This document shows positions 4,464 through 9,014 of a DNA stretch of 38,733 bases, in pieces. The stretch is from the IMG/VR virus record IMGVR_UViG_2698536454_000017. One strand, written 5' to 3'. The notes under the pieces are model-generated. The model worked only from the letters and a program-made list of their open reading frames with translations. It searched no databases and was not told the DNA's origin. Source of the stretch: a virus. Taxonomy: Duplodnaviria; Heunggongvirae; Uroviricota; Caudoviricetes. The number at the start of each line of letters is the position of its first letter. Position 1 is the first letter of the stretch. The translations under genes were made by a program, and so were the position numbers.

Positions 4464-4557
4464 AAAGAAGATTTCCAATAATCAGAACAAGTCGGCTCCT
4501 GTTTAGTTACGAGCGACATTGCTCACATAGCAGACTCGTAAATCTGCTATAGGCGCT

Positions 4558-4716
4558 TATTCGCATCGCATGACAACATCAAATTTTTCGAGATTACTTT
4601 GTCGCAACAATCCTTCTTCTACGCGGTCAGGTTTTCTATAATTATCAAATTCGAAATGTTTGATTACTTCTTTCGTTTCTCGCTCTATAACTTCAACAAT
4701 GTATTTCTTATTCATC
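4558..4716 (-). CDS. small hypothetical protein (52 aa)
   Basis: Hand translation MNKKYIVEVIERETKEVIKHFEFDNYRKPDRVEEGLLRQSNLEKFDVVMRCE, GGGGAAG upstream, stop TAA at 4560-4558. Confidence 0.3.
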
Positions 4717-4778
4717 ATTCTTCCCCAAGAGCTTTGCTAATTGCTGACTGTGCTTTCGATACTTCATCAGGATAATGG

Positions 4779-5171
4779 TCATTCCAGCTTTGCTTGTATG
4801 CCTTGTTTAGCATCGCTCAGTGGGATATCTCCTTCAGTTCTGACCATTCGCCTTAATACTTTCCTTAAGTCGATGTAAAGTTGAAGGTCTCCATTTGCTG
4901 CGGCATCAGCCATTTTTTGCCTGACAAGCAGTAATGTTTCATACGGCTCAATAAGAATATCGTCATGAGTAATTAGGTGAAGCGTTGCCGCATCAACTAT
5001 TCCTAGAGCTGCGCCAAGTATCAAAAATTCCCTGCTATTTTTGTCGCATGAGGAGATAAGCGTATTTAGCGCATACCTAATATTATTTATAGCTGTTGTT
5101 AATGCTGCAATTTCTTCTATGGCGTCTTCTTCAATGAGCTTTTTAAGCTCATATTTTTCTTCCTGACCCAT
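4779..5171 (-). CDS. hypothetical phage protein (130 aa) directly downstream of N
   Basis: ORF 4779..5255 trimmed to ATG 5171..5169 with GAGG SD; N stop at 5174. Confidence 0.5.
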   Translation of the reverse strand: MGQEEKYELKKLIEEDAIEEIAALTTAINNIRYALNTLISSCDKNSREFLILGAALGIVDAATLHLITHDDILIEPYETLLLVRQKMADAAANGDLQLYIDLRKVLRRMVRTEGDIPLSDAKQGIQAKLE

Positions 5172-5173
5172 AA

Positions 5174-5446
5174 TTACCTCGCCGTCAGTTGTTTTGATTT
5201 CCGGTAGCCTGCCGCGTAAATGGCTACGTTTGGCAGGCAAATACTTCCACTGCATTCATCTGCCTTCTTGCAGCGAAGGCTTCCGAGTGATGCTGCTTTG
5301 TCTGCTCTGACGCAACCAGAGAGCTTTAGCGCAATTTTTCGCGCCAGTCGCTGTTCTTGCATTGCCTGTTCACGTTGAGCCTGTCTGCGTGCTCTGCGGC
5401 GATTTCTGGCGTTATCGTCAGCCAGATATGTAATGACTACTGTCAT
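5174..5446 (-). CDS. N: N-like transcription antitermination protein (90 aa)
   Basis: N-terminal arginine-rich motif DNARNRRRARRQAQREQ typical of lambdoid N proteins; GGAGGT SD; nutL upstream and nutR after cro. Confidence 0.7.
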   Translation of the reverse strand: MTVVITYLADDNARNRRRARRQAQREQAMQEQRLARKIALKLSGCVRADKAASLGSLRCKKADECSGSICLPNVAIYAAGYRKSKQLTAR

Positions 5447-5889
5447 GTTGACCTCCGATGATTGACTTTGGTGATTGGATGGCCGGTGCTGAATTCCGGC
5501 TTACTGGTTAGAGCGCCCGCACTACCAGTGACGCTGTCTTGAGGCGCAGATTGGTTACTGCTTGCCATGAGCGCTGTTTATACATTGGTCGAGCATCAGC
5601 CTGCTCATTCATCCAATCCCAAAGCCAACTACTCTTTGACTCACACTCTCGCAGTGAGCGCGCTCATGCCCTTGAGTCTCTGCCGCTTCATCGCCGCTGA
5701 TAACCGGTGCGCGTCTGGCATTCGCGCTGCTTTACCGGAGCTACTTTTAATATATTGACCCTAACCCGATGCTAAGCAGGCTCGCTCAATGGCGACTCAG
5801 GGCAGCATCATTACTGCTGCATTTCCTTTCGGCTGCGGTCTAACCGCGTTAGTGCACCATTACGGCACCTCCTGTTTGGTTAAACTCAG

Positions 5890-5932
5890 TTCCCGCATTT
5901 CGGCGGGACAATCCCATCAATGTTAAAGAGCC
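5890..5932 (-). promoter_or_regulatory. nutL (boxA + boxB) on the leftward transcript
   Basis: Minus-strand GCTCTTTAACA (boxA) then 11 nt then TCCCGC-CGAAAT-GCGGGA hairpin, same loop and stem as the nutR boxB at 7585-7606. Confidence 0.55.
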
Positions 5933-5977
5933 TGCCAATCTGTTCCGTTTGGCTTCCAGCGTCCTGCTGATGGCTAA

Positions 5978-6006
5978 AGAATACTGTAGGTATTTTATTG
6001 TGTAAA
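5978..6006 (-). promoter_or_regulatory. PL-like promoter (minus strand -35 TTTACA, 17-bp spacer, -10 TATTCT)
   Basis: Hexamers read on minus strand; overlapped by operator sites at 5980-5994 and 6005-6019; about 40 nt upstream of nutL boxA. Confidence 0.5.
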
Positions 6007-6064
6007 TACCCAAGGTATTTATTTTTGATGAAATAATGATAAGCAAATGAATACAAAGGATATT
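5980..6064. promoter_or_regulatory. OL operator cluster: three 15-bp sites AATAC-N5-GTATT (third imperfect)
   Basis: 5980-5994 AATACtgtagGTATT; 6005-6019 AATACccaagGTATT; 6050-6064 AATACaaaggATATT. Confidence 0.5.
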
Positions 6065-6150
6065 TATTTTTTCGGTGTCTGCTTGTTCAGTGCTTTTTAT
6101 GCGGGATATGTGAAGTGGATCCCGATAGCTATTGCTGCCGGGATTATAGG

Positions 6151-6519
6151 TTAGTCAGCGAAGGTTAAGACGAGAATTACCTTAATGATATCTGCTACAA
6201 CAGACACGGCCATAGATAAACCAAAGACAATCCAAGCCATAGAGATGTCTTCACTACCATCGTATAGAGTTCCGTAATCACTGGTGTAAGGCGTAAATGT
6301 CGCGCCTTGATACAACAGGTATAAGCTTGAACCATAGAGGATAAATGCAGATATCCCTTGTATTGCTATGATCACTAGAATCATGAAACGAGCTGATCTA
6401 TGCGCCCAAGCCTGGCTTATTTTTTCTGATAGAGATTTCGCAATAAAAGCATGCGCTAAGCCGTAAATTGTCGAGATTGCCAACATCCCAAAAAAGCTTG
6501 CTATAGCGGTTCCAACCAT
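6151..6519 (-). CDS. small multi-pass membrane protein (122 aa) co-transcribed downstream of cI (rexB-like position)
   Basis: ATG 6519..6517 with AAGGGG SD, 18 bp after cI stop; three to four hydrophobic segments (e.g. FMILVIIAIQGISAFILYG, MAWIVFGLSMAVSVVADIIKVILVL). Confidence 0.6.
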   Translation of the reverse strand: MVGTAIASFFGMLAISTIYGLAHAFIAKSLSEKISQAWAHRSARFMILVIIAIQGISAFILYGSSLYLLYQGATFTPYTSDYGTLYDGSEDISMAWIVFGLSMAVSVVADIIKVILVLTFAD

Positions 6520-6536
6520 AATCGCCCCTTGCGTGA

Positions 6537-7253
6537 TCAAACCAGCCTTAGTTTTGTCTCAATTGCAACGCCTATAATCTTGCAGTTTCCATTGATTGGC
6601 ACGAGAGGCCATGCAGGATTAAGTCCCTTGAGGTATTTATTTCCGCCGTCGATTATCAGCTTCTTGAATGTTGCTTCGTTAGAGTCAGAAAGTTTTGCTA
6701 TGACCAAGCTGCCGTTGATCGCCTCCCTTCCGGTATCGAAAAGAACGAATGTTCCCTCTGGAATGCTTAACCCAACCGGTGCCGTCATTGAATCACCTTC
6801 CACTTTAAGCCAGAACGCATTACCTTGAATATGCGCGTCAGACTCAAGCCAAACATCTATGTCTTTAATGGTGTATGGTTCGCATGCTTCACACCACGAG
6901 CCAGCCTGGATACTGCTTAACACCGGATACCTCTTTCCTGCTCTGTATTCCCCTGCATACCTTACGTTGGCATCGCTCTTAAGGCTTTCTGCCTGTTCTG
7001 CAACCTTGGCAGCAATTGACTGGCTAAAATCAGCAATTGAGACTTGCAACAATCGTGCAAAACCAGATGCAACCTCAACGTTTAGCGCATTTCTGCCATT
7101 AAGATAATGCCCTACCGCTCCTTGGGTGATACCCAGTTCATCAGCGATTGAGTATTGGGTTATTCCCAATTCTTTCTTTTTTGACTCATACAAAGCCTTA
7201 AGCCGCTTAGCGTCTTCCAGCTGTTCTGTCGTCAGTGATTTTTTATTTTCCAT
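6537..7253 (-). CDS. cI: CI-type prophage repressor (HTH + S24/LexA-like autocleavage domain), 238 aa
   Basis: Strong resemblance to lambda CI (LTTEQLEDAKRLKALYESKKKELG..., FWLKVEGDSMTAP..., FKKLIIDGG); no SD before ATG 7253, consistent with a leaderless PRM transcript. Confidence 0.9.
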   Translation of the reverse strand: MENKKSLTTEQLEDAKRLKALYESKKKELGITQYSIADELGITQGAVGHYLNGRNALNVEVASGFARLLQVSIADFSQSIAAKVAEQAESLKSDANVRYAGEYRAGKRYPVLSSIQAGSWCEACEPYTIKDIDVWLESDAHIQGNAFWLKVEGDSMTAPVGLSIPEGTFVLFDTGREAINGSLVIAKLSDSNEATFKKLIIDGGNKYLKGLNPAWPLVPINGNCKIIGVAIETKLRLV

Positions 7254-7288
7254 AGCTTAATTCTAATAGCTAAGGTACTTAAACTAAA

Positions 7289-7328
7289 AATACCCTGAGT
7301 ATTGATTGCTTTGAATACCTGTAGTATT
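7289..7328. promoter_or_regulatory. OR operator sites (two clear 15-bp palindromes AATAC-N5-GTATT)
   Basis: 7289-7303 AATACcctgaGTATT; 7314-7328 AATACctgtaGTATT; same half-sites as OL. Confidence 0.5.
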
Positions 7329-7330
7329 CT
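7302..7330 (+). promoter_or_regulatory. PR-like promoter (-35 TTGATT 7302-7307, -10 TATTCT 7325-7330)
   Basis: 17-bp spacing; overlaps both OR sites; about 30 nt upstream of cro SD. Confidence 0.45.
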
Positions 7331-7359
7331 TTGTTCATGGTTAATAACGGAGAGTGCAT

Positions 7360-7554
7360 ATGATTCGAATGACACTTGCCGATTACGCCAAAATCCATGG
7401 ACAGGCTAAAGCAGCCAGTGACTTTGGTGTAATCCAGTGCGCTATCAGCAAGGCCATTCTGGCAGGCCGTAACATCATGGTTACGGTAAAGCCTGATGGC
7501 AGTGTGATTGGAGAGGAAGTTCGTCCTTTCCCAAGCAACAAGAAAAACAAATAG
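7360..7554 (+). CDS. cro: Cro repressor (64 aa)
   Basis: [24 protein letters not shown]...[10 protein letters not shown] resembles lambda Cro; GGAG SD 7 nt before ATG 7360 (track start 7354 is GTG). Confidence 0.8.
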
Positions 7555-7560
7555 TAACAC

Positions 7561-7606
7561 CGCTCTTTAACAGTCATGGTCCTCATTCCCGCCGAAATGC
7601 GGGAAT
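7561..7606 (+). promoter_or_regulatory. nutR (boxA CGCTCTTTAACA + boxB hairpin)
   Basis: boxA 7561-7572 matches recalled lambdoid boxA consensus; boxB ATTCCCGC-CGAAAT-GCGGGAAT at 7585-7606. Confidence 0.6.
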
Positions 7607-7662
7607 ACAACGCGCATAAGTTGATGCGCATAACTTCTTATTAGTTAAGGAAATACTTACAT

Positions 7663-7941
7663 ATGCAACTTACAAGTACTCGCAAGAAAGCGAATGCAAT
7701 TACAAGCAACATCCTGAATCGAATTGCTGTACGTGGCCAGCGAAAGGTTGCTGACGCGTTAGGAATTAATGAATCGCAAATTTCGCGATGGAAAGACAGC
7801 TTCATCCCAAAAATGGGAATGCTTCTGGCTGTTCTTGAATGGGGTGTTGAAGACGAGGAGTTGGCGGAACTGGCTAAGAAAGTAGCCAGAATGCTGACAA
7901 AAGAAAAAGCCCCGAAGAACGGCAAATTCTTCGAGGCCTGA
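7663..7941 (+). CDS. cII: CII transcriptional activator (92 aa)
   Basis: [29 protein letters not shown]...[10 protein letters not shown] closely resembles lambda CII; upstream TTAAGGAAATACTTACATATG matches recalled lambda cII ribosome-binding region. Confidence 0.85.
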
Positions 7942-7975
7942 TGTAGAAAGACTGGATCAATCCACAGGAGTAATT

Positions 7976-8122
7976 ATGACAAAACAACTCAGTCCTTACC
8001 AGGACAAAATTCACAAACACATACTACGTGATCGCTTCCTGTCCAGCTTCAAGCAGCCTGGTCGATTCCGGGCTGAGTTGGAAAAAGTGAAGCTGATGCA
8101 GAAGGAGAAAGGTCATGAGTAA
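7976..8122 (+). CDS. small hypothetical protein (48 aa) between cII and replication gene
   Basis: ATG 7976 with AGGAG SD; hand-translated open frame [15 protein letters not shown]...; stop overlaps start of the replication gene. Confidence 0.35.
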
Positions 8123-9014
8123 CATATCTAATCTAGCCGAAGCCAGAGAGGCCAGAAGGCTACAACAACCGCATCAAAGCAGCGGTAAGGGGTATGCCTT
8201 GCTGCACCGTAAAATTATGGATGTGCCGTTTTACAAGGACGCAGAAGCTGCGCATCTGTGGGTTCACTTAATCCTCAAAGCAAAGCATACGCCTGAGTAT
8301 GTAATGACTGACGCAGGAGAAATTCTGGTAGGCAGAGGGAAGCTACTTGGCGGTAGAAACTCTCTGGCGTTTGAAACAGGACTCAAACCAGATCGCGTTC
8401 AGTACCTGCTTAGAAAGTTCAAAAAACTCGGCATGATTGACTGGGTTTCACACGGTAAATTCTCAGTTTTCTCGGTAGAGAAATATGACGATTATCAGTC
8501 AAATTTTGTACCAGCAGATTACCAGCAAATTACCACCTCAAAGCCAGCAATACCAATGCCTGCAAGCAATACTGTACCAGCAGATTACCAGCAAATTACC
8601 ACAGATAAAGAATATAATAATATTATCTCTAATACTGACGTATTAGAGAGTACCGCAGCAGACAAAAAGTCTGACAAGAAAAAACCTTCCGTTAGCTGTC
8701 AGGATGTTGTCGATGCTTACCACGAAATCCTTCCTGAAGCGCCAAGAATCCGCGCACTGAATGACAAGCGTAAAAACCAGATCCGAACGTTCTGGCGCAA
8801 AGCCGGAGTGATAACCCGCCAGCTTGACGGGCATGGGTTCACGATGCAGGACTGGAGAAATTATTTGAGCTACGTAGGCGAAAATTGCCGATGGATGTTC
8901 GAAGAGCGCCCAAACCATCAACGCGGAACCGTCTGGCACAAAAAGGGATTTGATTTCCTGCTTAACGATAATACCTACCTGAAAGTTCGTGAGGGTGAAC
9001 ACGATGACCGATAA
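8115..9014 (+). CDS. replication initiator (lambda O / P22 gene 18 functional analogue), 299 aa
   Basis: Position between cII and helicase; GAAGGAG SD; internal iteron-like direct repeats as in lambda O/ori. Confidence 0.65.
8507..8650. repeat. candidate origin of replication: two 30-bp direct repeats (8507-8536, 8573-8602) followed by an AT-rich stretch
   Basis: Exact repeat TGTACCAGCAGATTACCAGCAAATTACCAC twice, 66 bp apart, each with internal ATTACCA sub-repeats; AT-rich 8603-8650. Confidence 0.45.

Follow-up and report, generated by a model that had tools for sequence, protein, structure and literature searches.

The immunity region of phage HK620 was annotated in 2001 (GenBank record AF335538; Clark, Inwood, Cloutier and Dhillon, J Mol Biol 2001), and our statements on HK620 rest on the features of that record. 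It marks the operators OL1-3 and OR1-3, the promoters pL and pR, nutL, nutR, pRE, and tIMM; it has no feature for PRM. The other described systems that we compare to are phage lambda and Salmonella phage epsilon34, whose putative operators are WTACRAWWTGTAT (Villafane et al. 2008, PMC2629481). Here we analyze the operators and promoters around the repressor gene cI (positions 5,978 to 7,330) in a viral sequence of 38,733 nucleotides (IMG/VR record IMGVR_UViG_2698536454_000017), which we will call the window. This is very likely the primary immunity region of a P22-like (Lederbergvirus) temperate phage of E. coli, with the HK620 immunity type and a lambda-type CI/Cro bistable switch.

Comparison to HK620

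Positions 5889-8200 of the window align to HK620 without gaps and with 98.6% identity. Every operator, promoter, and nut site is 100% identical between the two, and so is cro. The cI protein differs from HK620 cI by a single residue, A66T, which lies outside the helix-turn-helix, so the region belongs to the HK620 immunity type. The features that the HK620 record carries fall at the corresponding places in the window.

The operators and promoters of this region have been public since 2001, because the HK620 record already marks them. A first-pass annotation of the window had inferred the same architecture, and it had proposed that an operator unlike lambda's implies a distinct immunity specificity. 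The operator is indeed unlike lambda's, but this is not a discovery, as the regulatory DNA is 100% identical to that annotated in HK620. The region is an ordinary, textbook lambda-type switch, and as a discovery it carries little weight. The additions to what was known are small: OR3 and PRM are recognized, and should be in annotations of this immunity type; the annotated OL3 and tIMM are doubtful; and the breadth of the class that the operator and the recognition helix may define.

The region is found in other phages as well. A search of phage records identified it in HK630, mEpX2, HK140, two Stx2c phages, and others, and a survey of 5,426 complete E. coli genomes found it in 146, with at least 95% identity. 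Elsewhere, the window is a P22-like (Lederbergvirus) mosaic that differs from HK620. The PL leader between nutL and the N gene is 80 bp in HK620, while the window has a different leader of 418 bp (5472-5888).

Operators on both sides of cI

The palindrome AATACNNNNNGTATT (AATAC-N5-GTATT) occurs exactly four times in the window (5980-5994, 6005-6019, 7289-7303, and 7314-7328), versus 0.04 occurrences expected, and none of 100 shuffled sequences contained four. These form two pairs, which lie entirely within the intergenic regions on either side of cI. If one mismatch is allowed, then a single additional site appears in the window (AATACAAAGGATATT at 6050-6064), where about 1.0 would be expected. 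The five palindromes with common half-sites that the first-pass annotation reported are thus present where it placed them, with four exact and one at a single mismatch, and the rest of the window has no others. Sites with two mismatches are not enriched (21 versus 14.7 expected across the window). Because this class includes 7265-7279, which we discuss as OR3, it is position and homology that argue for OR3, and not the statistics of the motif.

To the left of cI are OL1 (17 bp, 5979-5995, with the core AATACTGTAGGTATT at 5980-5994) and OL2 (6004-6020, with the core AATACCCAAGGTATT at 6005-6019). Both are exact palindromes and correspond to OL1 and OL2 of HK620. They are centered at -16 and -41 relative to the predicted start of PL. 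To the right of cI are OR1 (7313-7329, core AATACCTGTAGTATT at 7314-7328) and OR2 (7288-7304, core AATACCCTGAGTATT at 7289-7303), which are also exact, correspond to OR1 and OR2 of HK620, and are at -16 and -41 of PR; OR2 is also at -43 of PRM. The remaining site, OR3 (7264-7280, core AATAGCTAAGGTACT at 7265-7279), has two mismatches and corresponds to OR3 of HK620. It is at -19 of PRM and -65 of PR.

As had been proposed, these operators overlap the promoter hexamers in the lambda arrangement. In OL1 and OR1, the half-site GTATT supplies the TATT of the -10 element TATTCT, and OL2 and OR2 overlap the -35 elements of the predicted promoters (TTTACA and TTGATT, respectively). OR3 is 24 bp from OR2 and lies over the -10 element of PRM as it does in lambda, which makes the arrangement properly lambda-like. 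The first-pass annotation overlooked OR3 and counted three sites at OL and two at OR. OL1 and OL2 stand, but OR holds three sites, and the third site at OL is uncertain, as discussed below.

Conservation of the operators

One alternative is that the palindromes arose by chance, or from the AT-rich composition of promoter DNA, and have no role in binding the repressor. The intergenic regions are AT-rich, and the two-mismatch sites are at the level expected by chance. But there are four exact copies versus 0.04 expected, and the comparisons below show that the positions and half-sites are kept in many genera, with freely varying spacers, and that the recognition helix found together with these half-sites is nearly invariant. 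We view the chance explanation as extremely improbable and effectively refuted.

We retrieved 80 viral contigs with cI. In 64 of these, cI is essentially identical (99.6-100%), and in the other 16 it is 76-87% identical. The 16 diverged contigs retain palindromes at OR1, OR2, OR3, OL1, and OL2, with a spacing of 23-25 bp. Free variation is seen in the middle 5 bp of each palindrome and in the stretches that separate the operators. Serratia phage vB_SspS_OS31 (MT843276; hereafter OS31), whose cI is 67% identical, has the same operator pattern as the window. A search for the palindrome in related phages found the half-sites at the same places in both the viral contigs and OS31. In the relatives, the equivalent of OR3 is at the same place and has one mismatch, and OL2 and OL1 are always 25 bp apart. 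In an alignment of OR from nine lineages, which is 74% identical overall, columns without any change are strongly concentrated at the half-sites and at T-A-..-A-T within the -10 element of PRM, and the half-sites of OR1 are invariant.

Variation within the HK620 immunity type gives a similar picture. Across 20 haplotypes of OL and 13 haplotypes of OR, no variant affects a consensus base of a half-site or a promoter hexamer. Several variants lie in the operator spacers, and the polymorphisms in OL1 are confined to its spacer.

We also scanned one genome per species for operator pairs, using the DNA pattern alone and no protein information. This identified 72 loci. In 18 species of Enterobacterales, the operator pair adjoins a homolog of cI, either between cI and cro or beyond cI, as for OL. 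These species include representatives of Pectobacterium, Pantoea, Tatumella, Lonsdalea, Kluyvera, Photorhabdus, Providencia, Enterobacter, Lelliottia, Siccibacter, Phytobacter, and Scandinavium. In the 18 species, the N-terminal domains of cI are 61-74% identical to that of the window, their recognition helix reads QGAVGHY(L/I)NG, from which three species deviate at one residue, and the helix of Cro is Q(C/T)A(I/V)SKA. Together, these comparative data strongly support the function of the palindromes as operators. They also predict cross-immunity groups among the prophages of many Enterobacterales.

Promoters and the start of cI

PL is on the minus strand at 5971-6006 and corresponds to pL of HK620. 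Its -35 element is TTTACA (6006-6001), which is followed by a 17-bp spacer and the -10 element TATTCT (5983-5978); the predicted start is A5971. PL was the sole match to sigma-70 promoters in a scan of 5400-7750 with a cut-off of 9/12 matches. The initial transcript from PL (ATCAGCAGGACGC) is identical to that from lambda PL, as the first 13 transcribed bases are shared. PR is on the plus strand at 7302-7337 and corresponds to pR of HK620, with TTGATT at 7302-7307, a 17-bp spacer, TATTCT at 7325-7330, and a predicted start at A7337. The two promoters thus share their -10 element, in agreement with the first-pass annotation.

The core of PRM is on the minus strand at 7253-7265. It comprises the -10 element TAGAAT (7265-7260), six nucleotides (TAAGCT), and the ATG of cI (7253-7251), with a predicted start at A7253. 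There is no purine run that resembles a Shine-Dalgarno sequence within 16 nt upstream of this ATG. Both the missing Shine-Dalgarno sequence and the TAGAAT had been pointed out before, and both can be read directly in the sequence. The same layout is present in the record for lambda (TAGATT-TAACGT-ATG), and in lambda the PRM mRNA begins at the AUG. Also, in all eight diverged lineages, a TAnnAT (TAGAAT, TACAAT, TACTAT, or TAATAT) lies 6-7 nt before a cI ATG without a Shine-Dalgarno sequence. Relative to the predicted start of PRM at 7253, OR3 and OR2 are centered at -19 and -43; counting from the lambda record, the corresponding positions for lambda PRM are -19 and -42. The predicted -35 element of PRM (TTTAGT) is poor, as expected for a promoter that would need cI at OR2. 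From this geometry and its conservation, we think it likely that PRM yields a leaderless cI transcript that starts at the A of the AUG.

Alternatively, the TAGAAT might be incidental, with PRM starting elsewhere or with cI being expressed mainly from a leadered message. Transcripts from pRE (7647-7686, transferred from the HK620 annotation) are leadered and certainly also encode cI during establishment. The poor -35 element and the failure of the generic scan to call PRM also fit with this alternative. But activator-dependent promoters are expected to have weak -35 elements, the layout matches that of lambda, and the TAnnAT is kept in eight diverged lineages while the neighboring bases change. 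Furthermore, the N terminus of cI aligns with lambda cI from residue 3-4, which implies that the ATG is the homologous start. We consider it unlikely that cI in the lysogen depends on another start, and we favor the leaderless transcript.

A lambda-like repressor and Cro with altered recognition helices

The repressor and Cro are both lambda-like, as the first-pass annotation had it. cI (6537-7253, minus strand) encodes a protein of 238 amino acids with the Pfam domains HTH_3 and Peptidase_S24; the latter is the self-cleaving C-terminal domain. Its best match among solved structures is lambda repressor (3bdn), which aligns over its full length (E = 2.9e-52, 43% identity). Ala117-Gly118, Ser155, and Lys197 align with Ala111-Gly112, Ser149, and Lys192 of lambda repressor. 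The features needed for self-cleavage, an Ala-Gly site and a Ser/Lys dyad, are thus retained, and we predict that the protein cleaves itself. In lambda cI, Asp38 is part of the patch that activates transcription, and this residue is retained in the aligned helix 2.

cro (7360-7554, plus strand) encodes a 64-residue member of the lambda Cro family (Pfam PF09048, E = 3.6e-26) and is preceded by the Shine-Dalgarno sequence GGAGAG. The protein is identical to HK620 Cro and 63% identical to lambda Cro, which is also its best match among solved structures. cI and cro diverge from a tripartite OR, with OR3, OR2, and OR1 at 7264-7329 and spaced by 24 and 25 bp. We infer that Cro and cI share these operators.

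Besides the full-length homology of both proteins, the window shares with lambda the gene order, 17-bp operators with a central base pair, and the placement of the first operators over the -10 elements and the second operators over the -35 elements. The layouts also differ. First, lambda has rexAB where the window has hkaS. Second, OL and OR are about 2.4 kb apart in lambda and about 1.3 kb apart in the window. Third, the candidate for the third OL site in the window is not adjacent to OL2.

The operator sequence itself is not lambda's. The palindrome is of odd length, so the 17-bp frame of the lambda operators fixes the numbering of the half-site: n1-A2-A3-T4-A5-C6-C7, or nAATACC(t/c), symmetric about the central base pair. 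The lambda half-site (TATCACC) likewise has A2, A5, C6, and C7, and the two half-sites differ at positions 1, 3, and 4. The recognition helix of cI is QSGVGALFNG in lambda and QGAVGHYLNG in the window, and the corresponding helix of Cro is QSAINK in lambda and QCAISK in the window. These changes fall at Ser45, Gly46, and Ala49 of cI and at Ser28 and Asn31 of Cro, which we take to be residues that face base pairs 3-4 in the lambda co-crystal structures. The changes in the recognition helices would then line up with the changed bases of the operator.

For Cro, a published evolutionary code links Gln at H1 to A+2, Ala at H3 to A+5, and Lys at H6 to C+6 (PMC6649833). By this code, the helix QCAISK predicts A2, A5, and C6, and all three are found in nAATACC. 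With four of the seven defined positions of the half-site kept (A2, A5, C6, and C7), this specificity is a close natural neighbor of lambda's. Because most positions are kept, and because the changes in the helices match the changed bases, the pair should be useful for studying the evolution of repressor-operator specificity and of heteroimmunity.

The third site at OL

The HK620 record places OL3 at 6026-6042 (TGATGAAATAATGATAA) and tIMM at 6039-6069. Neither is supported in the window. The site that the first-pass annotation called OL3 is instead at 6049-6065 (core 6050-6064), which lies 45 bp from OL2 and is centered at -86 of PL, under the annotated tIMM.

The OL3 of the HK620 record agrees with the consensus at just five half-site positions out of 10, and neither lineages L065 and L066 nor OS31 conserve it. 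It has three polymorphic positions, one of which varies in 9 of the 20 OL haplotypes. It is probably not a repressor site. The candidate at 6050-6064 departs from the consensus at just one of the 10 positions, and it is the sole additional match of this quality in the window. Lineages L065 and L066 and OS31 have a degenerate site, with two mismatches each, at the same 45-bp offset from OL2, and there is no polymorphism at 6044-6072 in the 20 OL haplotypes. The candidate at 6050-6064 fits the consensus and the population data better than the annotated OL3 does.

Part of this conservation has another source. The tract AAAATAAAT has exactly the same offset from the start of PL, -99, in lambda (locus L083) and in the window, despite the different operators in between, and the PL-distal half of the candidate (AATAT on the PL-sense strand, at 6060-6064 on the plus strand) overlaps it. 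Because lambda has the tract at the same position, some of the conservation of the candidate is unrelated to the present operator specificity.

OL might have only two functional repressor sites, with 6050-6064 being an A/T-rich element of PL (UP-like or architectural) or a chance match; or the true OL3 might be at 6026-6042, where the authors of the HK620 record put it. The tract supplies one half of the candidate, and it is shared with a phage of different operator specificity. The spacing of 45 bp is unlike the 24-25 bp between all of the other sites. In other lineages, the third site is 30 bp from OL2 (the L077 type) or is only a half-site (the L068 type), and the equivalents in L065, L066, and OS31 are the two-mismatch sites described above. 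On the other side, no other site in 38.7 kb has a single mismatch, and this one is 45 bp from OL2; the consensus of the other half of the candidate over four lineages is GTATT, with deviations at different positions in each lineage; and 6044-6072 lacks polymorphism. As for 6026-6042, it matches at half of the positions, is not conserved, and is polymorphic. We give the two-site explanation (or the original OL3) nearly an even chance. For the candidate at 6050-6064, there are about even odds that it is a weak repressor site. If so, then repressor bound at -86 would be a distal anchor for a loop, or would block stimulation of PL from upstream, instead of being an adjacent cooperative site.

As a separate observation, the tract AAAATAAAT at 6062-6072 (about -101 to -91 of PL) may be a conserved upstream promoter element. 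Lambda PL is reported to have a distant UP element (Giladi et al. 1998). By eye, there is no convincing match to the consensus for integration host factor (WATCAANNNNTTR) between the candidate site and OL2; the best match is TATCATTATTTCA, with two mismatches, which is inside the annotated OL3.

We rejected tIMM as annotated. Our scan found no minus-strand terminator there, and the stretch folds into a hairpin that is not followed by a U-run (z = -1.65). On the minus strand, none of its hairpins is GC-rich and followed by a U-run, and its weak palindrome is the candidate third OL site itself. Nor did the scan find an intrinsic terminator on the minus strand downstream of hkaS.

How the switch would work

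Given these features, we propose that dimers of cI and of Cro bind the 17-bp operators with the half-site nAATACC(t/c). In a lysogen, cI on OR1 and OR2 and on OL1 and OL2 would shut off PR and PL, potentially with looping between OL and OR. At -43 of PRM, OR2 is in the position for activation, and cI bound there would activate PRM. The weak OR3, over the -10 element of PRM, would provide negative autoregulation. PRM would start at the A of the cI AUG and give a leaderless mRNA that continues into hkaS. After DNA damage, RecA-stimulated cleavage between Ala117 and Gly118 would remove cI, and Cro would then occupy the operators and turn off PRM.

Several points weigh against this account. In the searchable literature, we found no relevant experimental work on the HK620 repressor or its operators, or on the palindrome. 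The assignment of cI residues to bases relies on contacts in the lambda co-crystal structures. PR and PRM each match the sigma-70 consensus at 8/12 positions, which is below the threshold of the scan; this is expected for PRM, and the scan neither supports nor refutes either promoter. OL has two exact sites, and its third candidate, 45 bp away and over a tract that is shared with lambda, is ambiguous. Finally, the terminator annotated downstream of hkaS is not supported.

Similar operators beyond E. coli

Epsilon34 has the core ATAC-N5-GTAT at its annotated OL1, OL2, OR1, and OR2, and the helix of its repressor is of the same GAV.H(W/Y) type (TKGAVSHWLNGRR). It differs from the window in that the outer bases of the operators are less conserved (GTATC, GTATA). 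Also, its operators are only predicted, the N-terminal domain of its repressor is distantly related, and its Cro is of the P22/HTH_3 type instead of the lambda Cro fold family.

OS31 and prophages of Enterobacterales are more similar to the window. They have the same half-sites, the layout of OR1-3 and OL1-2, and TAGAAT at PRM, along with QGAVGHYLNG as the helix of cI and QCAISKA as that of Cro. They differ in that their cI proteins are 60-87% identical, their backbones and hosts are different, and their operators are not annotated. In the OS31 record (locus L082), the deposited cI has 16 extra codons (1753-1800) ahead of the homologous ATG (L082:1801), and this extension crosses OR2 and OR3. 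The deposited start is probably incorrect.

Outside of the Enterobacterales, AATAC-N5-GTATT sites are found in groups of two or three, at intervals of 23-33 bp, in Pasteurellaceae, Pseudomonas, and Piscirickettsiaceae (loci L087, L091, L095, L113, L124, L127, L128, L140, L141, L144, L148, and L153). Most of these arrays flank cI-like genes in the fashion of OR or OL. The N-terminal domains of these cI-like proteins are just 35-52% identical to that of the window, with the helix T(Q/P)(G/A)(A/T).GH(W/Y). No homolog of cI was detected for the arrays at L091 and L144. In addition, two metagenome-assembled genomes of Sphingomonadales (L096 and L149) contain two clusters of operator pairs about 1-1.2 kb apart, as if they flanked a repressor gene; tblastn found no homolog of cI or Cro in these loci at E < 1e-3.

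These similarities suggest that the helix (Q/P)GA.GH(Y/W) and the half-site AATAC may define a specificity class that extends well beyond E. coli, to systems from Pasteurellaceae, Pseudomonas, Erwinia, and Piscirickettsiaceae, in which arrays of this palindrome flank cI-like genes with such a helix. If so, then phages of very different hosts would share one operator language. A second modest proposal is that the third OL site of the HK620 type is misplaced in the annotation and is truly at -86 of PL. Both proposals are tentative, and we give them somewhat less than an even chance.

Neighboring genes and the PL leader

Directly after cI, in the place of lambda rexAB, is an open reading frame similar to hkaS of HK620 (6151-6519, or to 6540, minus strand; 122-129 amino acids). 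The predicted protein is small, appears hydrophobic by eye, matches phrog_6534 (a family of unknown function), and has no match in Pfam. hkaS is presumably co-transcribed with cI, and it may be a prophage-expressed exclusion or defense gene. OS31 lacks hkaS and instead has a clean intrinsic terminator after cI.

The other genes nearby, which were identified from open reading frames and Pfam, encode CII (7663-7941, plus strand) and the N protein (5174-5446, minus strand). Two nut sites were located from the HK620 annotation: nutL, downstream of PL (5891-5932, minus strand), with boxA GCTCTTTAA and a boxB hairpin; and nutR, downstream of PR (7561-7606, plus strand), with boxA CGCTCTTTA and boxB TCCCGCCGAAATGCGGGA. 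The same 19-bp boxB hairpin (TCCCGCCGAAATGCGGGA) is present in nutL (5890-5908) and, in inverted orientation, in nutR (7587-7605). Identical boxB hairpins are expected if both sites are recognized by one N specificity.

A scan of 4500-8500 against Rfam, with E up to 1, gave nothing meaningful (just a spurious match to a eukaryotic scaRNA), and the leader between nutL and N (5472-5888) has no match in Rfam. Two Stx2c-converting phages carry this non-coding segment at 100% identity, and portions of it are also present in Hafnia phage yong1, mEp213, IME10, and Gally. No record annotates it. The minus-strand RNA of this leader folds better than shuffled sequences do (z = -3.2). Within the leader, at 5802-5830 on the plus strand and thus opposite to transcription from PL, is a terminator-like hairpin (GCAGCATCATTACTGCTGC) that is followed by a T-rich tail.

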